From: Acidobacteriota bacterium | Lineage (GTDB): Archaea > Nanobdellota > Nanobdellia > Woesearchaeales > DATGWN01 | Length of the DNA: 31,370 nucleotides | NCBI GenBank assembly: GCA_035299465.1 | Contig: DATGWN010000075.1 | Location: 1 to 31,370 of the forward strand | Reading direction: 5' to 3' | In this document: positions 1-26,038 of the stretch, piece by piece | How positions within the stretch are numbered: the stretch's first letter is position 1 | How the letters are laid out: each line of letters opens with the position of its first letter | Program-made: the position numbers and the translations under genes | The notes under the pieces: generated by a model | Told to the model about the DNA's origin: nothing | The model's database searches: none | What the model saw: the letters and a program-made list of their open reading frames with translations, nothing else

Positions 1-2
1 AA

Positions 3-566
3 GAAATTAAGAAATACGATGGCAAAAAAGATATTGACATATTATTCGTTGGCAGACTTCATTTTCAAAAAAACGTCTTCCTGCTTCTTAATTCGATAGT
101 TGCCTTGCGAGAGAAACAACCTGACATTACCTGTACTATAATCGGGGACGGACCAGAATTGAAAAAGATTGAGAAGTTTATTCAGCAACATTCGCTATCA
201 AAAAATATAACGCTTAAGAAAAATACGAAGGATCACGACGAGCTATACCGCTATTACCAGCGGGCCAAGATTTTTGCATTCCCTTCACTTCTTGAAGGTT
301 TTGCCATCGTATCTTTGGAAGCAATGGCCTGCGGACTTCCTATTGTGACTATAGACGCACCTCAAAATCACGCAAAAGAGACAATAGGCAGCGGAGCTCT
401 ATACGCGAGTAACACGATCTCTGATTTTAGCCAGAAAATACAAATTCTTCTAAATGACAAAAAAATGTATCAAAGAATGAAGAATGAAAATTTGAAACGT
501 GCACAATCGTATTCTTGGACTAAAGCAACGAGACTATTGGAACGTTTATACTCGTCGCGGATTTAG
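3..566 (+). CDS. Glycosyltransferase family 1 (GT4-type), C-terminal portion; 5' end lies outside the window
   Basis: The frame is open from base 3 and the listed ORF starts at 105. It has the GT-B C-terminal hallmarks 'FVGRLHFQKN' and 'EGFAIVSLEAMACGLPIVTIDAP' (E-x7-E motif). Confidence 0.75.
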   Translation, partial: EIKKYDGKKDIDILFVGRLHFQKNVFLLLNSIVALREKQPDITCTIIGDGPELKKIEKFIQQHSLSKNITLKKNTKDHDELYRYYQRAKIFAFPSLLEGFAIVSLEAMACGLPIVTIDAPQNHAKETIGSGALYASNTISDFSQKIQILLNDKKMYQRMKNENLKRAQSYSWTKATRLLERLYSSRI

Positions 567-2006
567 ATAATATGCAGTGCTGTTCTCTAGCGAGCCATTA
601 CAGTTAAGTTCGGACAAAGCATCATCGCACAAATTCACCACTTCGCCATACTGTGCACAGGAGACGAGAGCTTTTTTGCAAGTTCCATTAACAATATAGA
701 TTGCCGTATTGAAGCAAACATTAGAAACACCGCCTTCACGCTTTAGTGTTCTTTCACAGAAAATTTCGTGAGTGGGATTATACATTTCTGGAAACACACC
801 TAACATTATCCTTGCCAAGGTGGTGTGAGACAAATAAGTTGAGTGACGAACATTCAAGTCAGAGATTCCAACAATGAATGCCTGAGATGCTATTATCACT
901 ATAAGAACGTAAGGAATGAATTTGATAGGCCGTAAGTATGAAATTTGTCTCACAATTATAAAAAAGAAAAACGGCATCAAAAGAACGGTATAACGACTTG
1001 GCCCAGCACTACCATGATTCCAATTTAGTTGCAATGCACAAAGTATTGCTATACAAAATACAACCACGATCAACGTATAATCCATAAGCCACTTGCGTTC
1101 TGCAATATAACTGTACCCAACAACAATGGGTACCAAGAGCATGCTAATTGGAATAAACGAGATCATACCTATATTCGCATCAAGGAACAATTCAATTACT
1201 TTGAGAAAGGACCAATATGCAATTGATATGTGGCCATCAATCACATTTATCTGCCCGAAATTCCAAAGATAAAAGAATGAAGGAATGAGTGCAAAAGCAA
1301 GAAAGAACACCTGATATAACTTCAGTCGCCAGTTTTGTCGATACATTGCGTTAATGCACACAAATAAAACATAAACCAATACTGCCTGATGTTGAAATGA
1401 GGCAAATATCGCGAATATAAGCGCTAGTGTTTGCCAGTTTTTGTGCAAGCAAACCAACGACATCACTAAAAAGGACGCGATGAATATTTCGACGTGGCTC
1501 CAGCGCAAATACAATAAAATAGGCGAAGTAAGTAGCAACAAACTATATGTAATTTTTTGACCAAAAGAAAATGTAGATAGAAAATGTATGAAAAATAATG
1601 CGGTTATAAGCAAAAGAGCGTTTGTTATTTGTAAAGCCTTGTATGGGTCAAAATGAGTGAGAATTAATAGTTTCATAACTCGAGCACTAATTAAAGAGTA
1701 CGCCCAAAAATGTGAACTATACAATTTTCCGTCACTTGTAGAAACGTAACCCGTGTAATTTGACAACGTACGCTGACCAAACGGATTAACTCCCTCCTTA
1801 TAGTATTCGGACAAATCTATTTCTTGCAAATCAGGCGAATCGTGATTTACAAATGACAAGGCCGTCAAATAATATTCATTACCATCACCTTGACGATAAG
1901 GAGAGAGGATCAGCATCGCACTCAGTAAAGCAACGCTTAACACAACAAACACAGTAATATTCAATCGATTTTCATTTTTTTGAAAAAAAGATTTGTGCAT
2001 ACTCAC
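546..2006 (-). CDS. Polytopic integral membrane protein, possible GT-C-type (PMT/ArnT-like) glycosyltransferase
   Basis: 486 aa with at least 10 hydrophobic helices. The first extracytoplasmic loop carries an acidic 'GDGNEYY' patch, and the C-terminal region is Cys-rich and soluble. The start overlaps the GT2 stop (ATGA at 2003-2006). Confidence 0.55.
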   Translation of the reverse strand: MSMHKSFFQKNENRLNITVFVVLSVALLSAMLILSPYRQGDGNEYYLTALSFVNHDSPDLQEIDLSEYYKEGVNPFGQRTLSNYTGYVSTSDGKLYSSHFWAYSLISARVMKLLILTHFDPYKALQITNALLLITALFFIHFLSTFSFGQKITYSLLLLTSPILLYLRWSHVEIFIASFLVMSLVCLHKNWQTLALIFAIFASFQHQAVLVYVLFVCINAMYRQNWRLKLYQVFFLAFALIPSFFYLWNFGQINVIDGHISIAYWSFLKVIELFLDANIGMISFIPISMLLVPIVVGYSYIAERKWLMDYTLIVVVFCIAILCALQLNWNHGSAGPSRYTVLLMPFFFFIIVRQISYLRPIKFIPYVLIVIIASQAFIVGISDLNVRHSTYLSHTTLARIMLGVFPEMYNPTHEIFCERTLKREGGVSNVCFNTAIYIVNGTCKKALVSCAQYGEVVNLCDDALSELNCNGSLENSTAYYLNPRRV

Positions 2007-3103
2007 TTTGTCTCAACCAGCAGAAAACTCACTAAGAACGCGCTCACAAACGCCTGAAAGGAGATCGTCGCGCCAGTCAACAAAAAGATGAGCAAGTTCG
2101 TATTCAACACCACCTGGTTAAACCACCAATCGTAAACGATCCAGCCCAGTGACGCGCTAAATCCAAGCAAAACCAAAACTGCAAACGACATAGCAATCTC
2201 AAACGGAATTTTAGCCATCGCCGTCAACAATTTCTCTTCAGCACCCAATCCACGTTGCTTCAAGACGATTTTCGCAATAAAACTCACTTGCAAAACGCTA
2301 AACCCAGTATAACACAAGAAGCTGGCAACTAATGCCGCAGAACGATAGAACGTGATAGATAGAAATTCTAATTGCCCGCCGATTGAGAACAGCAAAAGCG
2401 CTCCGCCCGTTAAGAAACTGATCATACCTATCAAGAAGAATAGGTTCAGAGGAATGTACGCAATCAAAAATCGAAGATGGCGCCAGCCATCGGCCCATGT
2501 CGATAATTTGGACTTACCGACCCGTACATGATATCGAATCGGCACTTCAACTATTTTAAAACGGTTCAGCAACGATTTAACAAGCATCTCTGACGCAAAC
2601 TCCATCCCTGTTGTTTTGCAAGAGAGAGCCTCAAAGTCTTTGCGATGTATCACTCGAAAGCCGGAATTATTATCGGTGATTCGCTGATGAAAAAGAATCG
2701 ACAAAAATCCTGAGAGAAGCGGAGTCCCGACGTATCGATGAAAAAACGGCATCGCGCCATGATCAACAACTGACCGTTTACCTATCACAAGCGTTCCTGC
2801 GCGCGATTTCTTGATAAGCGCAAGTGAATCACGAAAATCGTACGAACTATCGCAATCGGCGATCACAAATACAGAACCTGATGCGGCTGCAATGCCTTGC
2901 ATAATTGCCGCACCATAACCGATTTTATTATGTTTTACGACAGTCGCGCCATGCTGTTTTGCAATACGACCAGACGAATCAGAAGACGAATCAGACACAA
3001 TGATTTCGTACGAATGTCCCTTCATCGTATGGTGGATGGCGTCTACGCATCGTGCAACGGACTTCTCTTCATTACGACAAGGTAAAATGAAACTATACAT
3101 CAT
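2003..3103 (-). CDS. GT2 glycosyltransferase, dolichyl/polyprenyl-phosphate sugar synthase-like, with C-terminal 4-TM (GtrA-like) region
   Basis: The N-terminus 'ILPCRNEEKSV...IIVSDSSSD...' and 'VIADCDSSYD' (DXD) are typical GT2-A fold motifs. The C-terminal 120 aa are hydrophobic. Confidence 0.8.
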   Translation of the reverse strand: MMYSFILPCRNEEKSVARCVDAIHHTMKGHSYEIIVSDSSSDSSGRIAKQHGATVVKHNKIGYGAAIMQGIAAASGSVFVIADCDSSYDFRDSLALIKKSRAGTLVIGKRSVVDHGAMPFFHRYVGTPLLSGFLSILFHQRITDNNSGFRVIHRKDFEALSCKTTGMEFASEMLVKSLLNRFKIVEVPIRYHVRVGKSKLSTWADGWRHLRFLIAYIPLNLFFLIGMISFLTGGALLLFSIGGQLEFLSITFYRSAALVASFLCYTGFSVLQVSFIAKIVLKQRGLGAEEKLLTAMAKIPFEIAMSFAVLVLLGFSASLGWIVYDWWFNQVVLNTNLLIFLLTGATISFQAFVSAFLVSFLLVETK

Positions 3104-3135
3104 TATGAAAGTAGGGTAGATATCTAATTATATAG

Positions 3136-4524
3136 TTAGCTGAGAGCCGTGTCCTTCACTTTATATATAAATAAACCGTCCGTAGACAGCTCGGCCAAAA
3201 ACGAACATGTTTCAGGTTTTCTGTTTACAACATACTCAGCGCCCAATGAGCGTATAATTTCTTCTTTTTTTGCACATGTATCTGCATTGAAATACGATAG
3301 AACTGCATCTCTATTGCCTTCCTCCCATACACGCAAATACAGAGGCCTCTGCCCTGCACCTAAATACATGACATTATTCAACAATTCGTATGATAAAACT
3401 GGCGCTTGAGGTTGTGCACGAAGTACCGAAAGGGCATCAAATTCATTTTGCTTGACCATTTGACTCACGGTCTTAAATTCAATGAATTGATTATCGTAAT
3501 AACAGAATCCGACTATGAATAAAACACAGAGAACTACCACAAAAAAACTCGCACGAAGTCTAATTTTAGAGAGAAGTGTGTTTAGTTTTACCCCAGCGAA
3601 AATAATACCGATTGATCCCAACAATATGGTTGCAACCATAAGAAGGTAATAGTTTCGTTCAGCCGGCACTAATATGCTGAACTTGAAGAATATATACAAT
3701 AAAGCATTACAAGAAGTTATCAATGCAAGCCAAACTAAAACGATGAATGATTTAGCATGTGCGACCTTATTAAATTTTATTACATAAATAGCTAATATCG
3801 AAAAAATAAGTAGTGGAATACCACACAGGAAAAAAATATTGAACATTGAAATACTGTTTATGTCTGTATCTCCAAAGAATAGTAAGGATTGAATTGTGTA
3901 TCCAAACTTAAAATGTGCTACATATAATAAGGCTGCCCCGAAAAGAATACCCACAGCCAAAATGCGCTTGGACCTGTATACAATTAGACCTAAAATACCG
4001 ACAACAATCGCTGTGGGTGGATGAACAAAGCACGTAGCCACTAAAACTAACACATACTTCCATGTCACGGTCCTTGCCCGTAATGTAACTAGCGCAAGTA
4101 TGAGCAATGAAACGCCCAAAGACATTGGGACACCGTACAGAATCCCTAGAAGCTTAGCATTCGATGGCAGAGCGCCATACAAGCATAGGGCTACGATACT
4201 TATCCGCTTGTCGTCAAAGAGTTTCCACAAACCAATTCCTGCTAACACAATACAGGTCAACGTAACGATAAAATATCCCGACAGTGGAACCAATAACAGC
4301 CAGAATGCGACAAATATGATGAAACCCGCTTCCATATGAAAAAGTGCGGACCAATCGCCATCGAGGAACTGCTGAGCCAACGTAGCATGGCGCCATTCAT
4401 CGTTATGCCAAGGCAAAAAAAGAGTCGCTCGCTGTACGTAAAACGACACCAGAAGAATCAAAATAACGCATAAGTATAATCCAAACAATAATTTTTTTTC
4501 TTTATACTTATTTCGTAAAGACAT
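3136..4524 (-). CDS. Polytopic integral membrane protein with C-terminal soluble domain; second possible GT-C-type glycosyltransferase
   Basis: 462 aa with many TM helices. The first loop has an 'HNDEWRH' acidic motif. The C-terminal domain of about 110 aa is soluble. Confidence 0.55.
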   Translation of the reverse strand: MSLRNKYKEKKLLFGLYLCVILILLVSFYVQRATLFLPWHNDEWRHATLAQQFLDGDWSALFHMEAGFIIFVAFWLLLVPLSGYFIVTLTCIVLAGIGLWKLFDDKRISIVALCLYGALPSNAKLLGILYGVPMSLGVSLLILALVTLRARTVTWKYVLVLVATCFVHPPTAIVVGILGLIVYRSKRILAVGILFGAALLYVAHFKFGYTIQSLLFFGDTDINSISMFNIFFLCGIPLLIFSILAIYVIKFNKVAHAKSFIVLVWLALITSCNALLYIFFKFSILVPAERNYYLLMVATILLGSIGIIFAGVKLNTLLSKIRLRASFFVVVLCVLFIVGFCYYDNQFIEFKTVSQMVKQNEFDALSVLRAQPQAPVLSYELLNNVMYLGAGQRPLYLRVWEEGNRDAVLSYFNADTCAKKEEIIRSLGAEYVVNRKPETCSFLAELSTDGLFIYKVKDTALS

Positions 4525-4548
4525 TGCTTAAAGACGGAACAAAGGATT

Positions 4549-4555
4549 AAAAAAA
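4549..4555 (-). terminator. Oligo-T tract (T7 on the transcribed strand) 6 nt after the stop of the three-gene secreted-protein unit
   Basis: The plus strand reads 'ttaaaaaaag' immediately below the stop at 4562, which fits the archaeal oligo-T terminator pattern. Confidence 0.35.
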
Positions 4556-4561
4556 GTATCG

Positions 4562-5296
4562 CTAGCAGTAAGGACATAAATCGCCTGCGTTTGGTGCAGG
4601 ATCTGGGCAACATGCATATGGACAAATTACTTCACATTGAGCGCAATAAACACTCCATCCGCCTTCATCGAAAGGGCTATTATCGTTGTTATCACAAGTA
4701 CCGTCACAATTTTCATTTCCTCGGCAATTTCCACCACAAGCATCACAATTACATGGCGCATCAATAGGACCCGAAGGTGCAACCGAGCAATGATCCCAGG
4801 GATCGTGTTTGCCTGGTCCTTCTTCAATGATACCAGGAGCGTCATAGTGAGGCTCACCTGGCGAACAGCGCCCGTTACATGAAGATCCTAAACCTGGTAA
4901 GCTACCTGCAGCTGAAGCTGCATTACATGTACCATCGCAAGAAATTGTACCCCACTGTTCATCGTGTGCATGGCCATCAATACATGTATATTCGTTACGA
5001 CATTGGTTCACACCAGCATATCGGAAGCAAACAGCAGTTGAATAATTTGAGAAGGAATTAAATTCCCCGCGAGTAGCAGTACTTACAAAAATGCTTGTTG
5101 AACCGCTGTTATTAAAATAAAATTCACCAGTCGAAATTTCAGAAGCCCCATTCCAATATTCTGTCGAATAAGGAGTTGTGACTACAACATTCGTACCAGG
5201 TGGAACAATAATTCCACTTGAATTGTCATCAGCCTGTACAAGCATAATAAGTGAAAAAGAAAGCAAAATCCAGAGTATAAATTTGAGCTTCATCAT
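4562..5296 (-). CDS. Secreted cysteine-rich protein (signal peptide + beta-rich N-domain + C-terminal domain with about 30 Cys)
   Basis: The N-terminus 'MMKLKFILWILLSFSLIMLVQA' looks like a signal peptide. The C-terminal half is dense in C-x2-4-C spacing and ends '...CPDPAPNAGDLCPYC'. It starts 12 nt downstream of the 1095-aa gene. Confidence 0.7.
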   Translation of the reverse strand: MMKLKFILWILLSFSLIMLVQADDNSSGIIVPPGTNVVVTTPYSTEYWNGASEISTGEFYFNNSGSTSIFVSTATRGEFNSFSNYSTAVCFRYAGVNQCRNEYTCIDGHAHDEQWGTISCDGTCNAASAAGSLPGLGSSCNGRCSPGEPHYDAPGIIEEGPGKHDPWDHCSVAPSGPIDAPCNCDACGGNCRGNENCDGTCDNNDNSPFDEGGWSVYCAQCEVICPYACCPDPAPNAGDLCPYC

Positions 5297-5308
5297 AAAT
5301 TGTCCTTT

Positions 5309-8300
5309 CTAATCACTAAGTGCTGCAATTTGCGCTTTCAACTCATCGATTTGTTGCTGTTGAGCGTCAATCATGCGTTGTTGTTCTTGTACTGCTGCGA
5401 CAAGAGGAGCAACCATGTTGCCGTATTGGACTGACTTGAGTCCTGAAGCATCAGTATTTACAACTTGTGGAAGTACTTTCTCGACGTCCTGAGCGATGAA
5501 ACCGATTTGCGTGTTCATGTCAGCGGAATCTTTCCATTCAAACGTAACTGGCTTGAGTGCAAGTACCTTGGAAAGCATTGATTCGTCGTTGAGCTGTCGT
5601 ACGTTCTTCTTCAAACTTGCATCTGAAGTATACCAGTAAGCTGTTGCACCGACTGCGCCGTTGACTCGTAATTTGTATGTTGAAGGAGCGACACCAATAC
5701 CGACGTTTGTAGCGTCATCTTGGATGATTGAGTTTGTTAATGTCGTGCCTGCAGACCATTTCGGAATGTATGCAGCAGTACCGCTACCGCCGATACCACC
5801 AGCTGCTGCTGCCCAGTAACCTTCGTTTGTCCCGTCAGAAGTCCAAACTTGTCCGTTTGTACCTGCTGATGTGATGAAATATGCTCCATTCTGAACTTTT
5901 GCAGCTGTAAGTGTACCGTCTGCCAAGTCATCAAGATCCGCGTCGTATGCTTGGACGTTCGATCCGATTGCAAGACCCAAATTTGTTCGCGCAGTTGCAG
6001 CGTCGTTTGCGCCTGTACCACCGCGAGCGACTTCAATTGCACCTAGTGTAAAGAATGCAGTTGCTGAATCACCTGATAATGCGTTACCAGCTTCGCCGTC
6101 ACCAGCCGCATAGTTTCCAGTTGTATCAGTACCCAATGCAACACTATCTGCCGCAATTGTAGCGCCAACAACACCTGGACCAGTAGCAGTAACGTCACCA
6201 GTCAATTGACTGATACCGTTTCCGCCGCCGTCAGTACCACAAGTGAATGTGTTCGTACCAGTATCATAAAGAAGTTTGCTTGTTCCTGCAACATCACAAT
6301 CAGGGATAGTTTGTGCTTGCCAGCCGCTGCCGCCTGCACCAACCATGACTGCGTCTTCTGTTGCAGAAGTCAATCCAGTACCACCGCGAGTATATTCGAT
6401 TGCACCTGAACTGAAGAATGCCGTTGCTGAGTCACCAGTAAGTGCTGCACCAGCTTCTGCGTCACCAGCCGCGTAGTTACCCGTTGTTTCTGTACTGAGC
6501 GTAATAGCGCCATCAGACAAGGAAATCAAGTTGAAAGTTGGACTTGCCGCAGTGTGTATATCTTGAGGCAATGATAAAGTTGGAGCACCAGAGAGACCGT
6601 CACCATTAGAAACGGAAACTTGGTTTGCCGTACCTGTGATTGTTCTTGTCGTGAATGTATCCGCACCAGTTCGAACGACAATACCTGTCGAAGCGAGTTG
6701 GTGGATTGCTAGAGCCTGACCAGTAAGACCGATTGTTCCAGTCGTAGTGATTGGACCGCCTGTGACACCGTTGTTTGTTGCAATGTTAGTAACCGAACCA
6801 GCGATTGCTGAAATTGGAATACATTGTACACCGCTCGTCGTTGTATTTTCAACAACTGTGCCTGCCGCACATGTGCCAGGCACTGATTTTGCGTTTAATT
6901 GAGTTTGAATCGCTGACGTGACACCGTTGACATATCCAAGTTCTGTTGCAGTAGTAGTTGCAACTGCGACCTTACCTGAACCATCAGAAACGAGTGCGCG
7001 AGATGCAGTCAAATCTGAACTAGTGATAGATGTTGCACCACCAGTGATAGTTGCTTGCTTGCCGTTAAGTTGAGTTTGAATAGCTGATGTGACACCCGAT
7101 ACATAACCAAGTTCAGCAGCTGTTGTCGCTGAAACTGCGACTTTACCTGAACCATCTGATGCAAGTGCGCGGGATGCAGTCAAGTCCGAACCAGTGATAG
7201 ATGTTGCACCACCAGTGATAGTTGCTTGCTTGCCGTTAAGTTGAGTTTGGATCGCTGATGTGACACCTGAAACATAGCCGAGTTCTGTCGCTGTTGTTGC
7301 GGAAACGGATACAAGTCCTGAACCATCAGACGCAAGTGCGCGCGAAGTAGTCAAAGCAGGAAGTCGTGCAAATGGAACTGTACCAGATTGCATAGTGCCA
7401 GAAAGCCATAAGTCTGTCCATCGTGCACCCGTTGAACCAAGATTGAATGTCGCCGAAATGTTAGGCAAGAAGTCGCCGTTCACCGCAGTAGCTGCAGCAA
7501 GGTAGACATCGCCAGATTGTACGATGAGATCGCCGCCGAGGACGAGATTACCAGTAATTTGCGTTGCACCAGCAACGTTGAGCTTGAATGCACCTGGCGA
7601 GCTTGTACCGATACCGATGTTTCCACCAGTCTGATACATTTGCGAAGATGCAATCGTTGAACCGCCTGTGAAATATGATATATTGCCTGCGTCACCAGTA
7701 CCGTCGATACCACCTGCGCCTGCAATTGATGAACAAGTGTAAGAACTGTTAGTGATTGCTGTGAGAACTTGGCCACCGCCACATGTTCCGACTGCGCTCT
7801 TAGTCATCGCTAAATCATACGCCAGCTTAGCTGCGTTTGGTGTAGCGGATGTGTTTGTTGACGAAGATTGAACACCATCAGTAAGCATGACGACACCGAT
7901 CTGCGCCGTTGTACCAGGGCGAATCTGCTGATTTGATGCACCAGTTATACGACCTTGAGCGTCGATTGCGATTTGAGGACTTGAAATTGTGTCACCATAT
8001 GTTGCTGGAGTGACTGCTGTGTTCGCAAGGTTAAGTGTAATACCACCGGAAAGCGAACCACCGCCAGAAAGACCAGTACCTGCAGTAACTGATGGATTAC
8101 CTGAAATTCTTGCCCATGGAACTGAACCATTTTGAAGATCTCCAGACCAACCAACATCACCGTAGACGTGCAATCTATATAATGGGACGACTGGACCTAC
8201 ACCGATTTTGTCGCCAAAATCAATGATGATAGAATCGCCGATTTCACTTTCGTTGTTGAACTTAGGAACACGATTAGAATTACCTTTTGATGTAACGTTA

Positions 8301-8596
8301 CCTACGCCGCCGACACCGCCAGTTGGCCATGAACCACGGCAATCTGCACCGATGCATAGACCACTAGAACCACGAGCATAACCTGTGACATCAAGCGCTT
8401 GCGTTGGAGTGCCCGTTCCGATACCGACTTTACCCGAAGTACCGTTTACAACGAGATAATCGATAGATGGTGATGATGAATTCTCAATGACAAAATCTCG
8501 AGCATATGCTACTGGAGAAAATGCGAAGAGTAGTAATACCAAGATACTGATTAATTTAGTTGCTGATGTCATTCCCCCTATTCCCCCAGTTCTCAT
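5309..8596 (-). CDS. Giant secreted Gly/Thr/Ser-rich tail-fibre-like surface protein with C-terminal intramolecular-chaperone (peptidase S74-like) autoproteolytic domain
   Basis: Signal peptide. Repeated 'G-x-VGIGT-x-x-P-x-x-KL-x-V-x-G' motifs and three 57-aa tandem repeats. The C-terminal 105 aa, '[11 protein letters not shown]...[10 protein letters not shown]...[15 protein letters not shown]...' followed by a coiled coil, match the phage tail-spike chaperone domain. Confidence 0.8.
6880..7392 (-). repeat. Three tandem 171-bp (57-aa) repeats inside the 1095-aa gene
   Basis: 'ttgagtttgaat...' recurs at 6899, 7070 and 7241. The protein unit is '[12 protein letters not shown](K/L)V(A/S)VSATTA(T/A)[31 protein letters not shown](G/S)SDL'. 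Confidence 0.85.
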
Positions 8597-8616: not shown

Positions 8617-11600
8617 TTAAATCTTAATGTAAACGTCACCGTTCGAATTCAAACCGACTGAACCGCTGTTCGTCGTTGCTTGGAACGTACCCACAACATC
8701 AAGTTTGTTTGATGCCGTTGCTGTATTGATACCGATGTTTCCGCTGTTTTGGAAAATCTGTGATGATGCTACCGTTGAACCTGCTGTGAAGTATGTGATA
8801 TTTCCTGCGTTACCAGAACCGTCGATACCGCCTGCACCAGCGATTGATGTACATGTGTAAGTGCTGTTCGTGATTTGCTGCAAGACTTGTCCACCCGCAC
8901 ATGAGCCAACTGCTGCTTTCGTAGCTGCCAAGTCATACGCTAGTTTGACTGCGTTCGGAGTCGCAGATGTGTTTGTCGACGAAGATTGTACGCCGTCCGT
9001 TAACATCAAAACACCGATCTGTGATGTCGAACCAGATCTGAATTGGTTTGTGCCTGCCGCAGTCAATCGACCTTGAGCGTCTACAGTGAATGACGGAATT
9101 GCCGTATCAGAACCATATGATCCTGCGCCGACAGCCGTGTTTGCTAAATTGAGTGTGACTGAACCCGAAAGTGCTCCGCCACCAGACATACCTGTGCCTG
9201 CAAGAACTGATGGGTGACCAGACAATCGTGCCCATGGGACTTCACCTGATTGCATCGTGCCTGAAAGCCACAAATCATTCCATCGAGCTCCAGTGGAACC
9301 GAGATTGAAAGTCGCTGACACGTTTGGTAAGAAGTCGCCATTTATTGCAGTCGCTGCCGCAAGATAAACGTCGCCCGTCTGAAGTATGAGATCGCCACCT
9401 GTGATAACGAGATTTCCAGTCATCAAAGTATTTCCTGTGACTGATAATTTGTATGAACCAGGATTGTTATTTCCAATACCAACATTACCTTCGATGACTG
9501 CACCATCGGATGGCGGAGTTGTTGCAAGATAACTATTTCCTACACGAAGATCGTTCAAAGTTCCTCGGTAACCAACCATTTCTACATTGTTGCCAAGTCG
9601 CTTGAATCCGCCGTCAACTGCTGTTCCACTGACTTTCACAATATATGAACCATCAGAAACACCGGAGTGATTTACGCGAAGTGGACTGTCTGCGAGAGGA
9701 GTTCCAAGACCTGTGAAACCTTCGACAATAAGACCATTTGAAGCATTTCCAAGCGATGCGTAACTTGAACCAATCGAGACGTTACCTGAAACGGATAATT
9801 TGGAACCTGGTGATGAAGTGCTCAAACCGATTCGACCGCTCGTCTGGTATAATTGTGCGGATGCCAAGTTTGACGTACCAGTCCAGTATGAGATATTGCC
9901 TGCGTTACCAGTACCAATTGTTCCGCCGATCGCATCGATTGGAAGACATTGAACACCAGTCGTTGTTGTGTTTTGGACAAAGTATCCAGCTGCACAACTT
10001 CCTGCTGTCGCTTTGATGAGTGCAAGATCGTATGCAGTTTTGACTGCTCTGGATGACGCAACTGAATATGTTGAGTTATATGACACACTATCATTCATGA
10101 TAGCGATACCGAATTGTGAAGTATTTGAGTAGGGGACATCTGACAATCGAGCCCATGGGACTGTACCAGCTTGAAGAGTTCCCGTGAAACCGACATCGCC
10201 TTGTACATCCAACTTATACGAAGGAGTTGAAGTTCCAACGCCGACATAACCACTTGTTTTCAAAGACATGACTGGTCCGCCGTATCCTGTATTCGTAATC
10301 GTGAATGTATCTGGGTTGTTTCCGGACATACCTGCACCGATTCCCCATAGATAATTATTACTTGATGACGTCAAAGCGCCACCGATGCTGCCAGTAACGC
10401 CTGAACCGAATGCAATTGATGATTCGCCCACTGCCGTGTTGACGACTTGAATTTGTCCGTTGCTGCCAGAAGTTGTTTCGACAACAAGTTTACCGCCGTA
10501 CAAGTGAGCAAGAGCGCTTGGTGACGTTGTTCCGACACCCAATCTGCCCGCGTCAGTTAATACTGCTTTAGCAGTGCCTGACGTGACGAAAGTCATATTG
10601 TTTGAAGACGGAAGATAGATACCTGCGCCCGAACCTGAGAATGTGCTCGTCGGGGAAAATTGTAATTCGCGTGAAGTGCCGAGTGCGATCTGGCCGTTTA
10701 CCGTGAGTTCTTCGTTTGGCGAAGACGTACCGATACCGACAAGACCTGTATTTGTGATGACCATTCGGTTTGACGTAGAATCATAATCATAGAACTGAAG
10801 CAAGCCACTTCCTGTGTCCGCATATGTTACTTCCCATCGCTGGCTGCCTGAACTGTTGACGAACTTGAGTTGGCTTGAACCAGATGAAGTCTGTTGTAAT
10901 CGCAAATCACCGACGACATGTAATCGACCAGCCGGAGCTGTTACACCAATACCAACGTCACCGCTATTTTCAAACGTAACTCTGTCGTTGCCAGTTGAAT
11001 CGTAGAATCGTAAGTCGTCGCTCGATGCAGGAACGTATGCTAACCATTTGTTTGTGCCTGCTTTCTTGAAGTAGAGTGTTGCTGCCGTAGCCGCGCTCGA
11101 ATCGATTGCTGCAGATGCCGCAGCAGTGCCTGCGCCGACGTGTAAATTACTTGTTGGAGCTGCGGTGCCGATACCGACATTGCCTGAAGTATCTATAGTA
11201 AGAGCAGTATTAGTGCCTAGATCTGCCATTGAGCGGCCGATTTTGAATTTGTCTAAATCGCTATTGTCCGATCCAATCATCCAAGCGACACCGCCTGACG
11301 AGAAACCAAGAGTTGCATCGCCTGCGCCAGCTTGTTCTACTCTGATTATATCAGAAGTAGTTGCATCGTTCTTGTATGCGCGAATGATTTCGCTGCCTGA
11401 AGCAGCAGTCGTACCTACAGCAAGATTTGTTGAAACATACGCATCGCCAGAAACGGAAAGTCGCGTAGTCGGACTTACGCCAATACCGACGTTACCACCG
11501 TCGACGATTCTGATTGCGCTCGTAGAAGTACCGTCTGAAATGTCGACACCACCAAGCCAACCTGCCGATGCACTTGTACCGTAACCGATTCGAAGGACAT

Positions 11601-12021
11601 TCGATGTCGTGTTATCGATCAAAGCGCCTTTTCCATTAAATGAGAGATTATTACCTGCAGAAATCTGGATAGCACCTGCCACATCCAACTTTTGTGCTGG
11701 AGTTGCAGTACCTATACCGACATTAGATGTCAAGTAATATACATAATTAGTAGTAGTATTTCTTCGCCATGGACCGATATATGATTGGTTGATCGCACGG
11801 TTTAGCGTCGTTTCACCAATTCCCGGAATGTCGGGGACTTTGACGACGATCTGGTTTGCATTGTGACCGTTTAAGATGCTGCTTTGGAATGTATGGTTAC
11901 CGACAGATAATAATGTGTCAGAAATGAGCTCGTCTGCAACAGAAAACGGCAACACCAACAGTGTAATGATTGTAAACAGAGCGTAACAGATAATACTTTT
12001 TGAACGTTTCCCTACAGGCAT
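8617..12021 (-). CDS. Giant secreted Gly/Thr/Ser-rich tail-fibre-like surface protein, paralogue of 5309..8596 without the chaperone domain
   Basis: Signal peptide '[20 protein letters not shown]'. At least 10 copies of the GxVGIGTxxPxxKLxVxG motif. The C-terminal 300 aa are about 70-80% identical to an internal segment of the neighbouring gene, in permuted order. Confidence 0.8.
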
Positions 12022-12138
12022 CCCATAAACCCCTTTTTATACAGTCCCGAAAAACACGATTTAAATACTTTGTGGCGGGAATCAAGAACAATGTCTAATT
12101 CCTAGGTCGGAGAAAGCAAATCGCCGTTTTTTCCTGCA

Positions 12139-22585: not shown

Positions 22586-23425
22586 CTACAGAATGTCAAT
22601 ATAATCTTCCATCGATTCAATACAAATCGAACCATCATCACACACACTCCCTCGGACACGCACGATATCACCCTCTTTGACACACGATTGATAACACCAT
22701 AACAACGTCCACACGTTTGTCAAACCTTCTGCGGCACCTACTGAAAACGAACGAGGCATAAAGTCGGAACGGTTGCAACCAACAACGCCACAAATTTCTC
22801 TTTTCTCGGACAATATACGAGCACAAATAACAGGCATCTTTTTTGGCAAAAAGCGAATTGTCATTGCAACGCCGTCTGAAAACACCAACGTCGACCACCG
22901 TCTCAAAAGAATCTTTTCTGCGCAAAATTTTGAGGAAAAACTCGCGAATTTGTGTGTACGTGACATTGCGTACGCCTCATCTACAGCATGCGCATCCAAA
23001 AGCACTCTCAGCGCAACAATATGCGATCGTACAAGCGCATGTGCCTCCTCCCCATACACACAAAAATCAACATCCTTCGCAGGAGAAAGCTCTAGCATGA
23101 ATGAACCAAAGATACCTATATCGCATTGTGCAATTCCAATATACTCGAGAAATTCACCGATCATTCGAAATTGCGGCGGCATAGAATGTTTCATACACGC
23201 GTAAGCGCTTCTTGCATGAATCACGAACCCCTCAGGAATTTTCTCAAGAACACTGTCGGACCGAATTACTTTTTTGAATCGGCGACCACTTGCGTCAACC
23301 TTATCACCTTGTTCGTTCAGAACATATACTTTTCTGCCGTACACTGCACCATCCAAGCTATGCGTGACGATATAGTAATTGAACGCCATATCGCGAACAT
23401 AATCACACGCGCTAAGGACTCTCAT
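22586..23425 (-). CDS. Pol-beta-superfamily nucleotidyltransferase-fold protein with C-terminal OB-like beta domain (start reassigned to Met59 of the listed ORF)
   Basis: 'GIFGSFMLELSPAKDVDFCVYG' fits the hG[GS]x9-13[DE]h[DE]h pattern. The ATG at 23425 forms an ATGA overlap with the upstream methyltransferase stop, whereas the listed start (23599) would overlap that gene by 178 nt. Confidence 0.5.
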   Translation of the reverse strand: MRVLSACDYVRDMAFNYYIVTHSLDGAVYGRKVYVLNEQGDKVDASGRRFKKVIRSDSVLEKIPEGFVIHARSAYACMKHSMPPQFRMIGEFLEYIGIAQCDIGIFGSFMLELSPAKDVDFCVYGEEAHALVRSHIVALRVLLDAHAVDEAYAMSRTHKFASFSSKFCAEKILLRRWSTLVFSDGVAMTIRFLPKKMPVICARILSEKREICGVVGCNRSDFMPRSFSVGAAEGLTNVWTLLWCYQSCVKEGDIVRVRGSVCDDGSICIESMEDYIDIL

Positions 23426-24111
23426 AACGGTCTCATCGCATGAATATTTATGTACGTATTTTTTCCAGCGACTTCCTTTGGTATCGTTCGCACATGTGAA
23501 ATAATGAACCCAGCGTCGCAAACAATTTGTCGCAATCCCGTCGGCGTATCTCGGAATCGATACCGAGGTAATGCATACTTCTTGTCGGCGGGCAGCCAAC
23601 CCTCGTCTCGCCCCATCCCTTCAATAAAACCGAAAAATAATGCTCCCGTCGGCTTAGTGATGCGATACAATTCTGAAAGCACTACCCGTATCTGTGCAAG
23701 TGGCGTCGTCGTCAAAGAGCAATTAGTCCACACTCCGTCAAAATAGCCGTCAGAAAAAACGCGTAAATCTTTTTCATAATTCATTTGTCGAGTTTCAATA
23801 CCCTTATCTGCCGCACGCATCAGCGCATATGCAGACAAATCAACACCCAGTACTGACAAACCACGCAAAGAAAGTTGCTGTGCATCGCGACCTGGACCGC
23901 AACCAAGATCCAACACTCGGCCGTCGACACTCATTCGAAAAAAGTCATAATCTTTCTCATACAGATGTGCACAATATTTTGTTCTACCTTCGTACTGAGC
24001 AGAATATGCATTGTATAGTTCTTGTTTGATAAGAATTCTATCTGATTCGCAAACATCCGCAGTAAGCGGAGCACAACCAGTCGCAAACTCACGAATTTTG
24101 TCGATATGCAT
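23422..24111 (-). CDS. Class I SAM-dependent methyltransferase
   Basis: Motif I 'VLDLGCGPGRDAQQL', motif II 'GVDLS' and a post-II acidic residue, in a Rossmann-like layout. Confidence 0.8.
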   Translation of the reverse strand: MHIDKIREFATGCAPLTADVCESDRILIKQELYNAYSAQYEGRTKYCAHLYEKDYDFFRMSVDGRVLDLGCGPGRDAQQLSLRGLSVLGVDLSAYALMRAADKGIETRQMNYEKDLRVFSDGYFDGVWTNCSLTTTPLAQIRVVLSELYRITKPTGALFFGFIEGMGRDEGWLPADKKYALPRYRFRDTPTGLRQIVCDAGFIISHVRTIPKEVAGKNTYINIHAMRPL

Positions 24112-24658
24112 CTTTAATCATCTCCACCATTTCTCCCTTGCTTCGGCAGCGACACAGATTATCAACCGCAATCATACCGTATTGTGACGTTTGTTGTAGC
24201 AAATGTCGATCCAAAGAACATATTGTGTCAAAATGTTCAAGCCATAACGGTTTTGCACCAGTGCGCTTGTACATCTTCTGTTGTAGTCGCTCTCGTCGTA
24301 AAACAGGAGGACATGTCAAATAAAAGCCAATTTTTTTGCCCGGCAGCGAATCGTACAAAGCTGGGCTGCATTGCACGCCCTCAATCAATATTTTTTTATC
24401 ACACGAGTACTGAGCAATTTCATTAAACAACAATCCATACGCAGTACTGTGCACAGCGTAACCTGCAAAGTCATCGACACCAAGCACCCGTCCTGCCGAG
24501 TGCGAAGGAGCTACAGACACATCTGCGACACCAGCTACTTTTCGTAACGTCTTTAGCGTATCAGTATGTATTAACTCTTCAATACCCAAAGCACACGCAA
24601 TATCTTGGCCTATCGTCGACTTACCACTACCCGGCATTCCGCCAATCATCACTATCAT
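24089..24658 (-). CDS. P-loop kinase, 2-phosphoglycerate-kinase-like
   Basis: The N-terminus 'MIVMIGGMPGSGKSTIGQDIACALGIEELIHTDTLKTLRK' closely resembles the 2PGK family N-terminus, including its Walker A motif. It overlaps its neighbours at both ends (23 nt and 4 nt). Confidence 0.6.
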   Translation of the reverse strand: MIVMIGGMPGSGKSTIGQDIACALGIEELIHTDTLKTLRKVAGVADVSVAPSHSAGRVLGVDDFAGYAVHSTAYGLLFNEIAQYSCDKKILIEGVQCSPALYDSLPGKKIGFYLTCPPVLRRERLQQKMYKRTGAKPLWLEHFDTICSLDRHLLQQTSQYGMIAVDNLCRCRSKGEMVEMIKDAYRQNS

Positions 24659-25479
24659 TGTGCCCGGTACGCCAACTTGCTAAAGTCTTGCTTAGTCATG
24701 CGAGTGAACTTCATATCATTATGATTTCGAATGATATCCGCCAATCTATGCACGCCTGCAACGACTTGTGCTTCGTCACCATATTTGAAAGTCCGAGGAT
24801 ACGCGTAGAAACCCGGAATAAATCCGTGATACTCGATTTCCACCTGACGTAAATATCGATCACTGCCGGTCGGATTGCACGTTGAGACCGAAACATCATA
24901 GACTCGACCGTCATCCCTATCCAAGAATGTCAAAGATGCTACAACTTTATCCATATCGCCGACATATCGATAACCCTCAGACGCCAACGATTGCGATTGT
25001 GTAAATACCTCATCCAGCGACGAGACGGGTTGTATTTTTTCCGAGCGTTTGAGAACATACGCGCAAAAAGGATTTCGGTTAGGTAGATTCTTTTTCTGCT
25101 TCAGACTAAAACCATTCTCGCGTTGTGCAAATGTTGCCGTGTTTGTACCTTTCACAAAATACGACTCCTGAGATCTTTTCTCGTCCGACAATTCTCCTTC
25201 CAGATACTTCGCGGCACGTTGCCCGTAAATGATTTCAGCCAAATCTCTCGTTGACATTTCTAACTGTTGTGGAATTGTCGGTGTGAGTTTTGCTTCGAAC
25301 TCCACATTTGGAAATTCTGTGGGCAGTGCGTCAAATCCTTCAGATTCGTACATGTTTTTTATGTAATTCATTGTGTTCCCCCGTTCATTGTGTTGTTGAT
25401 TGTCTTGCTTGCGTTGTTCATTTCGAGTGTGTATTGAGCGTTTTGTCCAGCACGAATTCGAGTCGAGGTATTTTGTCAA
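24655..25479 (-). CDS. Candidate CYTH-like (triphosphate tunnel) domain protein; probable true start Met37 (25371)
   Basis: From Met37 it has an N-terminal 'NVEFEAKL' (ExExK), 'QESYFVKG', 'SLKQK' and a C-terminal 'RQVEIEYHG' (ExExE-like). Spacing is compatible with an 8-strand CYTH tunnel. This is a motif-level call only. Confidence 0.35.
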   Translation of the reverse strand: MTKYLDSNSCWTKRSIHTRNEQRKQDNQQHNERGNTMNYIKNMYESEGFDALPTEFPNVEFEAKLTPTIPQQLEMSTRDLAEIIYGQRAAKYLEGELSDEKRSQESYFVKGTNTATFAQRENGFSLKQKKNLPNRNPFCAYVLKRSEKIQPVSSLDEVFTQSQSLASEGYRYVGDMDKVVASLTFLDRDDGRVYDVSVSTCNPTGSDRYLRQVEIEYHGFIPGFYAYPRTFKYGDEAQVVAGVHRLADIIRNHNDMKFTRMTKQDFSKLAYRAQ

Positions 25480-26038
25480 GTGCTGGTACCCTCAGCGGTT
25501 CGTAGCCGACTCGCCGATAGGCCGCGTGTAGCTGCTTGTGGATTTCGCGCATCATCTCTTCGCCTTCTTTGCGTTGGCCGTCAGTTTGGTAGATTGAGAG
25601 TGGATCAAGAATCAGAACACCGGCGTAGCGTCGTTTGCTGACCGCATCCACGATGTGTTCAGGCACTTTTTTTCCTTCTCGTACTTCGCGTTCCAGATAA
25701 TATCCTAGCGTATCCGGAAGACCCCTGTCGAGATACACCGGTCCGTTGAGTTGAGAGATTGTTGCTTCAAGACCGTTTTGCACTTGCATAATCTTTTGCT
25801 GGAATTCGACGAAGTCTGTCCAGGGAAGCGGACCATTGCTTTCCATGTTCGCGCGTATCAGTGGCCGAGCGATTTCTGGCATCGTATAGTATCCTTTGTC
25901 TGATAAACCGTTGCAAAGTGTTGTTTTTCCGCATCCGGGAGGCCCTGTAATCACATAGAGTCGGTTCCCGTTGTGGCTGAGAGGAGATTCTATCATGTGG
26001 CACCGATATGTATATATACTTGTACTGAAAATAACCAT
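25418..26038 (-). CDS. P-loop NTPase, AAA_28/COG3911-like predicted ATPase/kinase (alternative start Met15 at 25996)
   Basis: Walker A 'ITGPPGCGKTTL' and Walker B-like 'GVLILDPL'. It is the first gene of the five-gene minus-strand operon. Confidence 0.6.
   Translation of the reverse strand: MVIFSTSIYTYRCHMIESPLSHNGNRLYVITGPPGCGKTTLCNGLSDKGYYTMPEIARPLIRANMESNGPLPWTDFVEFQQKIMQVQNGLEATISQLNGPVYLDRGLPDTLGYYLEREVREGKKVPEHIVDAVSKRRYAGVLILDPLSIYQTDGQRKEGEEMMREIHKQLHAAYRRVGYEPLRVPALDKIPRLEFVLDKTLNTHSK

Follow-up and report, generated by a model that had tools for sequence, protein, structure and literature searches.

A predicted secreted trimeric fibre protein with a C-terminal S74 chaperone module encoded by a DPANN archaeal contig deposited as Acidobacteriota

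We analysed the 31,370 nucleotides of contig DATGWN010000075.1 from the GenBank assembly GCA_035299465.1 (hereafter the window), deposited as part of a TPA metagenome-assembled genome under an Acidobacteriota label, and focused on the 1095-aa protein p1 (5309..8596 (-); NCBI HLP79900.1), a fibre protein by its open reading frame and its Pfam and PHROG matches that ends in a module of the Peptidase_S74 family of intramolecular chaperones, and on its neighbour p2 (1134 aa, 8617..12021 (-); NCBI HLP79901.1), a fibre protein with two Pfam PF03406 matches and no S74 module. Our preferred explanation, which we consider reasonably probable, is that p1 belongs to the cell and is exported, forming a trimeric fibre of mosaic build; its S74 module would template folding and then cut the chain between T990 and S991. 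Together with p2, it would correspond in an archaeon to the mosaic adhesive trimeric (MAT) fibres described in Bdellovibrio bacteriovorus (Caulton et al. 2024, PMC10769870). The S74 module of p1 is a typical representative of an established family and is ordinary when taken alone: the exact p1 protein is already named ‘tail fiber domain-containing protein’ in the public record, with the organism label Acidobacteriota, and p2 is named ‘phage tail protein’. The interest lies in the setting, namely a mislabelled DPANN archaeon, secretory signals, a pair of fibres with and without S74, and an orphan cysteine-rich partner.

The C-terminal S74 module of p1

An earlier note on this DNA, made from the sequence alone, had proposed that an archaeal surface protein ends in an S74-like self-cleaving chaperone domain and had named the Pfam profile PF13884 as the means of checking it. 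This profile matched p1 aa 991–1046 with an E-value of 3.9e-16 and a score of 59.5 bits, against a curated gathering cut-off of 22 bits, and the match covered nearly the full profile (positions 1–57 of 58). The first residue of the match is S991, which together with K996 forms a Ser-x4-Lys arrangement of the SDxxxK type (S991-D-A-S-L-K996). S991 (codon 5624..5626 (-)) is the predicted nucleophile of a scissile bond between T990 and S991 (5624..5629 (-)), and K996 (5609..5611 (-)) is, from its conservation and spacing, the predicted general base of the Ser-Lys dyad. When p1 was aligned with 43 relatives of 27–48% identity, S991 and K996 were kept in at least 90% of the sequences and G1032 in all of them, and HMMER aligned SDASLK with SDERLK, SDRRIK, SDARLK and ADARLK of the solved tail fibres 8jov, 6f45, 7y5s and 4uw8.

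The position of the predicted cut agrees with sites mapped in other S74 proteins. The transcription factor MyRF is cut at P586-S587, and cleavage is abolished by S587A or K592A, the equivalents of S911 and K916 in the endosialidase endoNF, most other substitutions near the cut site merely lowering cleavage (PMC8326128). The Bdellovibrio fibre Bd3182, of the S74 type, is cut at S782, which lies in an SDxxxK motif, and the S782A substitution stops cleavage (PMC10769870). The five-residue spacing from S991 to K996 is that of MyRF S587/K592 and endoNF S911/K916. An aromatic pair, F1019 and W1021, lies at +28 and +30 from S991, which are the offsets of Y615 and Y617 that line the cleavage centre of MyRF (PMC8326128), and from these offsets the two pairs are probably equivalent. 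The cut at YT-SD put forward in the earlier note is thus in line with experimentally mapped sites, and p1 would be expected to cleave itself between T990 and S991.

The fold points to the same family. An AlphaFold monomer model of p1 aa 953–1095 had predicted local distance difference test (pLDDT) values of 87–98 across the S74 module, whose core (aa 991–1046, 5459..5626 (-)) appears as a small alpha/beta unit in agreement with Pfam and Foldseek. Significant Foldseek matches in the PDB were exclusively intramolecular chaperones, with the intramolecular chaperone auto-processing (ICA) domain of MyRF (7dc3) as the best match (E=3.6e-7, template modelling (TM) score 0.63), accompanied by an endosialidase (3gw6) and the phage GA-1 neck appendage (3gud); all non-chaperone matches had E-values above 0.8. 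The last 37 residues were modelled as one long helix with pLDDT values of 93–98, and this terminal helix (aa 1058–1094, 5315..5425 (-)), with V, V, I, I, I in the a positions and L, Q, Q, L, L in the d positions of its best heptad register, is predicted to form a trimeric coiled coil. The triple coiled coil of MyRF is the main driver of its trimerisation (PMC8326128). The fragment predicted to be released, S991-D1095 (5312..5626 (-)), comprises 105 aa starting with SDASLKKNV and has a mass of 11.5 kDa. Profile, conserved residues and fold therefore uphold the S74-like domain seen by the earlier note, whose motifs were all present, whose heptad-like tail was borne out by register and modelled helix, and whose fragment size of about 11–12 kDa fits the calculated mass.

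Secretory signals, modular build and origin of the fibre genes

The N-termini of p1, p2 and the product of the gene downstream of p1 (p3) each begin with a Sec-type signal composed of a basic n-region, a hydrophobic core of 12–15 residues and a small-x-small site. The predicted signal peptide of p1 spans aa 1–32 and is followed by RD (8501..8596 (-)), as judged from hydrophobicity with the cleavage position read by eye. Its 19-aa Kyte-Doolittle mean reached 2.08 at aa 12, compared with 1.26 for the next best segment, and the N-terminal signal is the sole hydrophobic segment in p1 and likewise in p2. Such a signal suits extracellular folding and not the assembly of a fibre on virions in the cytoplasm. 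Of 117 full-length homologues with the tandem repeats of p1 (see below), three had a hydrophobic N-terminus and 114 lacked it.

Downstream of the signal, p1 is a mosaic. It contains a module common to the C-terminal end of p2 (aa 145–412, 7361..8164 (-); BLASTP of p1 against p2), a Phage_fiber_2 (PF03406) match at aa 229–266, three near-identical tandem 57-aa repeats (aa 418–588, 6833..7345 (-)) and, 27 residues ahead of S991, a capping-loop-like unit (aa 964–977, 5666..5707 (-)), of which there are two in p1 and seven in p2. Tail-fibre families of PHROG were matched over p1 aa 795–1094 and also by p2, the region ahead of the S74 module (aa 780–990) matched the phage tail fibre 7z47 in the PDB, and p1 carries GGTGA-x-DAA-x-AR-x-NLGL motifs typical of phage fibres. 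No PDB match was obtained for aa 33–420, and no enzymatic domain, sialidase included, was recognisable in p1 by Pfam. The matches from a homologue search with full-length p1 came mostly from the 57-aa repeats, with coverage of about 14%, and told nothing about the S74 end, and a search with the C-terminal part returned short unnamed proteins only. The repeats are about 60–82% identical to those in hundreds of metagenomic and phage fibre proteins, an unusually high identity given that the hosts must differ greatly.

No S74 module was found in p2 by Pfam, and a purpose-built S74 hidden Markov model (HMM) made from 40 relatives retrieved no second one from the six reading frames of the whole window. 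The statement of the earlier note that one of two paralogues carries the domain is therefore correct as to the domain; the word paralogue is loose, since the shared modules are shuffled and not collinear. The segment of p2 at aa 845–1132 (8620..9487 (-)) matches p1 aa 145–412 with 63–77% identity in a permuted order (BLASTP), and the N-termini of the two proteins are alike over one 52-aa unit only. The last 73 residues of p2 (aa 1062–1134, 8617..8838 (-)) parallel p1 aa 931–990 (5627..5806 (-)), and p2 ends 13 residues beyond the equivalent of the S74 junction with no other distinct tip domain, so that it looks like an S74-type fibre minus its chaperone. The shared module could act as a junction between the two fibres or as a surface on which they co-assemble, or it could reflect mere module shuffling.

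The link to MAT fibres came from p2. Compared with solved MAT fragments, p2 matched Bd2133 (8ond), a fibre of the non-S74 type, with an E-value of 1.4e-9 and Bd3182 (8ojn, 8onb and 8onc) with an E-value of 3e-7. Its units of the form SG-N/D-VGIGT-xx-P-xx-KL-x-V align with the capping-loop units of both fibres, where the motif G-x-G-T-x-x-P-x-x-x-L recurs as SGNLGLGTAAPTSALHV, AGNVGIGATAPTAKLEV and SGFFGINTAAPAYNIHV. A profile built from the homologous segments of p1 and p2 retrieved Bd3182 (8ojn), Bd2133 (8ond) and, weakly, Bd2439 (8ol4).

The likeliest rival explanation, to which we give a low but appreciable probability, assigns p1 and p2 to virions: they would be tail fibres of an archaeal tailed virus that has integrated or decayed, or else of a tailocin or contractile-injection particle, and S74 would play its customary phage part in the cytoplasm. 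The PHROG tail-fibre families, the Phage_fiber_2 matches and the 57-aa repeats, which in the homologue P0007 sit in a terminase/portal/capsid module, speak for it, as do the nearest relatives of the S74 module of p1, found in cyanophage fibres and in marine contigs dense in Mtd_N fibre genes. These likenesses indicate that the building blocks of p1 and p2 come from a common phage-fibre pool. The only moderately host-like tetranucleotide signature of the fibre genes and their absence at the syntenic site in 45 relatives, both detailed below, also favour a viral source. Against it stand the Sec-type signals on all three proteins, for which cytoplasmic virion assembly has no need and which nearly all homologues lack. 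Moreover, no capsid, portal, terminase, sheath, tube, baseplate or integrase gene was found in the 31 kb with Pfam and PHROGs. S74 is found on fibres of some extracellular contractile injection systems, and no locus of this kind with its sheath, tube and baseplate genes was detected in the window by the same searches. Scans for tRNA and Rfam families in the window were empty, giving no hint of an integration site. The fibre genes are directly flanked by valyl-tRNA synthetase (ValRS) and glycosyltransferase genes, the latter carrying the host signature. Their relative synonymous codon usage correlates with that of the housekeeping genes of the window (r=0.75 for p1 and 0.82 for p2) as well as those genes do with one another, and their GC content at third codon positions is not raised, so that their higher GC reflects a composition rich in Gly, Ala and Thr. 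Labels such as ‘tail fiber domain-containing protein’ in cellular genomes thus need not mean a prophage.

Homologues of the fibre genes occur in varied surroundings, none of those examined being demonstrably archaeal. Apart from P0007, they include an uncharacterised locus with two S74 giants, a locus with GST, VIT1 and 2C_adapt, a giant open reading frame beside toxin-antitoxin genes, and marine fibre-rich contigs. At locus L059 (23..10696 (+)), an open reading frame of more than 3,557 aa that runs off the locus has S74 at about aa 3035–3138 followed by some 400 residues, so that the domain is internal and not terminal, as in MyRF; it adjoins NYN, HEPN/nucleotidyltransferase, Fic and AbiEii genes. 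At locus L046 (5352..15199), on a contig with high GC at third codon positions, two divergent adjoining proteins of 1514 and 1732 aa both end in S74, making this another multi-fibre locus.

A second and somewhat less probable rival accepts the S74 module and supposes that it no longer cleaves and stays on the C-terminus for good as a trimerisation knob. In phage proteins cleavage is triggered in part by correct folding of the stalk upstream, the upstream region of p1 is divergent, and the solved relatives found by Foldseek are at most about 25% identical, which would all be compatible with a lost activity. p1 nevertheless keeps the dyad, the invariant glycine and the two aromatic residues close to the cut site, and all tested S74 proteins in which SDxxxK is intact, from phages, Bdellovibrio and mammals, cleave. 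We accordingly see the idea of a silent knob as unlikely and retain the predicted cut in our preferred explanation.

Host assignment and gene neighbourhood

The window encodes a fusion of a Hef-type helicase, an ERCC4 nuclease and a helix-hairpin-helix region, FEN-1 (XPG_N/XPG_I), a TrmY-type methyltransferase, an MBF1-like helix-turn-helix protein, and class-I ValRS and cysteinyl-tRNA synthetase. The closest relatives of its ValRS, with 57–68% identity, are found in metagenome-assembled genomes (MAGs) named Woesearchaeota, Nanoarchaeota or simply ‘archaeon’ and in Archaeon GW2011_AR15. Archaeal gene content and ValRS relatives together identify the host as one of the DPANN archaea, akin to Woesearchaeota (Nanoarchaeota in GTDB). 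This bears out the archaeal origin assumed by the earlier note despite the Acidobacteriota label, which is most simply explained as a binning error, and a deposit under Acidobacteriota is thereby shown to be an archaeal contig. More distant ValRS relatives (L013, L035 and L027; 44–48% identical) occur in MAGs named Moranbacteria/Moraniibacteriota, of the candidate phyla radiation (CPR), and ‘Rickettsiales endosymbiont’; these are either more mislabelled contigs or cases of archaeal-type ValRS in CPR bacteria.

The tetranucleotide z-scores of the left flank (1–5300) and of the archaeal right-hand part correlate with r=0.79, a value reached by less than 1% of 133 foreign DPANN pieces and by none of 97 other pieces; the flanks on both sides of the fibre genes thus share a signature, and a chimera would need two junctions. 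Most Acidobacteriota are high in GC, and the GC content in the window is 37–49%. That the contig is bacterial or an assembly chimera, with the fibre operon belonging to a bacterium, is therefore very improbable: the NCBI organism label and the description of MAT-like fibres so far in bacteria only are outweighed by the archaeal-type Hef, FEN-1 and TrmY, the DPANN-like ValRS, the shared flank signature, the matching codon usage and a GC content below that of most Acidobacteriota.

The fibre genes belong to a co-oriented string of six genes in the order p2, p1, p3, membrane protein, family 2 glycosyltransferase (GT2) and membrane protein, separated by gaps of 20, 12, 37, 32 and -4 nt, and the fibre and glycosyltransferase genes are probably co-transcribed. 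The sequence TATTTAAAT (12059..12067 (-)), some 42 nt ahead of the p2 start codon, was picked out by eye as a candidate archaeal TATA box. A G-rich stretch just ahead of the p2 ATG, in the divergent intergenic region between p2 and ValRS, is a plausible ribosome-binding site.

The gene that starts 12 nt downstream of p1 encodes p3 (4562..5296 (-); locus tag VK158_04650), a predicted secreted protein of 244 aa with 21 cysteines (8.6%), mostly in its C-terminal two-thirds. It had no match in Pfam, NCBIfam, PHROG or the PDB, and a search of 5.8 billion protein clusters returned only p3 itself. In phage S16, the gene downstream of gp37 encodes the tip adhesin gp38, and the location of p3 is reminiscent of this arrangement. 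We considered p3 as a gp38-like tip adhesin and rejected the idea as unsupported, p3 being an orphan with no similarity to any PDB chain, 6F45 included.

The remainder of the string consists of a polytopic membrane protein of 462 aa (3136..4524 (-)), a GT2 enzyme resembling AglJ and dolichyl-phosphate hexose transferases (2003..3103 (-); Pfam Glycos_transf_2) and a second polytopic membrane protein of 486 aa (546..2006 (-)). The NCBIfam models TIGR04182 and NF041391 were both matched by the GT2 product below their cut-offs. Neither membrane protein had a Pfam or NCBIfam match even at an E-value of 1, and the two, flanking the AglJ-like gene, may represent an undescribed family of enzymes that handle glycans. 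The presence of this GT2 gene in the string hints at a link between surface glycosylation and the fibres. Elsewhere in the window, five overlapping or abutting genes (22586..26038 (-); products of 337, 229, 189, 274 and 206 aa) are mostly without a family, and only the 206-aa product has weak nucleotide-kinase-like PHROG matches.

Proposed maturation and comparison with known systems

If p1 is a cellular trimeric fibre as we propose, its maturation may be pictured as follows. The chains would be exported unfolded via Sec, as their predicted signal implies, and outside the cell three of them would be aligned by their C-terminal S74 modules, with the last ~37 residues forming a three-stranded coiled coil. 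The S74 trimer would then nucleate C-to-N folding of the intertwined fibre upstream, comprising beta-helix units, capping loops, the 57-aa repeats and the tip region. Once the trimer had formed correctly, K996 would activate S991 and the chain would be cut between T990 and S991. The 11.5-kDa chaperone fragment would thereby be freed, and the mature fibre, with chains of about 94 kDa each, would have its tip newly uncovered. A chaperone that is carried in cis and is independent of ATP would be a sensible answer to the problem of folding a long trimer outside the cell. Such a fibre would most likely serve to adhere to another cell or surface or to recognise it.

Several findings weigh against this picture. 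Searched alone, p1 had no match among the MAT structures, the link being made through p2 and the two-sequence profile, and p1 aa 1–160 yielded no relative among 171 collected proteins, a beta-rich and conserved domain about 130 aa long straight after the signal peptide being a hallmark of MAT fibres (PMC10769870). No cell anchor is evident in p1 or p2 besides the signal peptide; possible means of retaining the mature fibre on the cell are an uncleaved signal anchor, N-terminal binding to the envelope, or association of p1 with p2 by way of the module that they share. The numbers of N-x-S/T sequons (10 in p1 and 19 in p2) are close to the 11.3 and 17.6 expected from composition, so that they are not enriched and gene order is what suggests the glycosylation link. 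In a ValRS-anchored comparison of 45 related loci, mostly from DPANN archaea, none had an S74 or fibre gene within 10 kb, and the fibre genes accordingly have no conserved neighbourhood and are not a conserved feature of the lineage. Finally, the tetranucleotide signature of the fibre genes is moderately host-like, with r of about 0.5, a value that is expected of repetitive genes and leaves room for an older horizontal origin.

A cryo-tomography study notes that the molecular details of host recognition by DPANN archaea remain unknown. A phage-like, receptor-binding fibre that is predicted to be secreted and brings along its own module for folding and quality control offers a concrete candidate for host attachment in these organisms. 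We go further only tentatively, on a proposal that we hold to be rather unlikely as it stands: DPANN archaea would have recruited phage-type, self-chaperoning trimeric fibres for host recognition, and p1 and p2 would be the archaeal equivalent of prey-recognition MAT fibres, perhaps joined by the orphan p3, as an accessory or tip factor, and by glycosylation encoded in the operon. If true, this would amount to one cross-domain solution to cell-on-cell lifestyles, in which an ATP-independent intramolecular chaperone serves the folding of extracellular fibres. We found no literature on S74, intramolecular chaperones or MAT fibres in the cells of DPANN or other archaea, and the searchable papers on MAT fibres deal with Bdellovibrio-like predators only.

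Among known S74 proteins, the best sequence matches to the module in the PDB and among cultured phages, with 35–47% identity, are S74-ended distal subunits of long or L-shaped phage tail fibres such as T5 pb1 (4UW8), gp37 of Salmonella phage S16 (6F45) and the distal fibres of cyanophages and vibriophages; these are encoded in virion modules and, unlike p1, have no signal peptides. The K1F endosialidase endoNF (3GW6) and the GA-1 neck appendage (3GUD) share with p1 the Pfam family, the fold, the dyad spacing and the C-terminal location, and their chaperone domain is released after the trimer has folded, but they are virion proteins that fold in the bacterial cytoplasm, and their structural match (TM scores of 0.4–0.5 with 12–16% identity) is weaker than that of MyRF. 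The MyRF ICA (7DC3), a non-viral S74, is the best structural match and shares the Ser/Lys dyad, the aromatics at +28 and +30 and the C-terminal triple coiled coil, whereas MyRF itself is a eukaryotic transcription factor of the endoplasmic reticulum membrane with an internal ICA that frees a DNA-binding trimer and has no role as a fibre or adhesin.

The closest system in overall design is that of the MAT fibres, through which p1 and p2 tie an archaeal system to fibres that have been characterised experimentally in Bdellovibrio. MAT fibres are cellular proteins of ~1,000 aa with signal peptides, built as intertwined trimeric beta-helices with recurrent capping loops, and they have been shown on the surface of the predator, where they serve prey recognition and handling (PMC10769870). 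Those with S74 require exposure of the tip by cleavage for ligand binding (PMC10769870). The host of p1 and p2 differs in being an archaeon without an outer membrane or periplasm, p2 lacks an alternative folded tip, and there are two genes here compared with 21 in Bdellovibrio. The likeness lies in the cellular setting, the length of ~1,000 aa, the predicted signal peptide, the mosaic build and the beta-helix units with capping loops, one of which precedes the S74 serine in p1 much as the distal loop F752-H765 precedes S782 in Bd3182. It extends to the presence of members both with and without S74: 13 of the Bdellovibrio fibres end in S74 with the SDxxxK motif and eight, termed NS74, end in other tips (PMC10769870), so that a single S74 module in the pair formed by p1 and p2 has a precedent.

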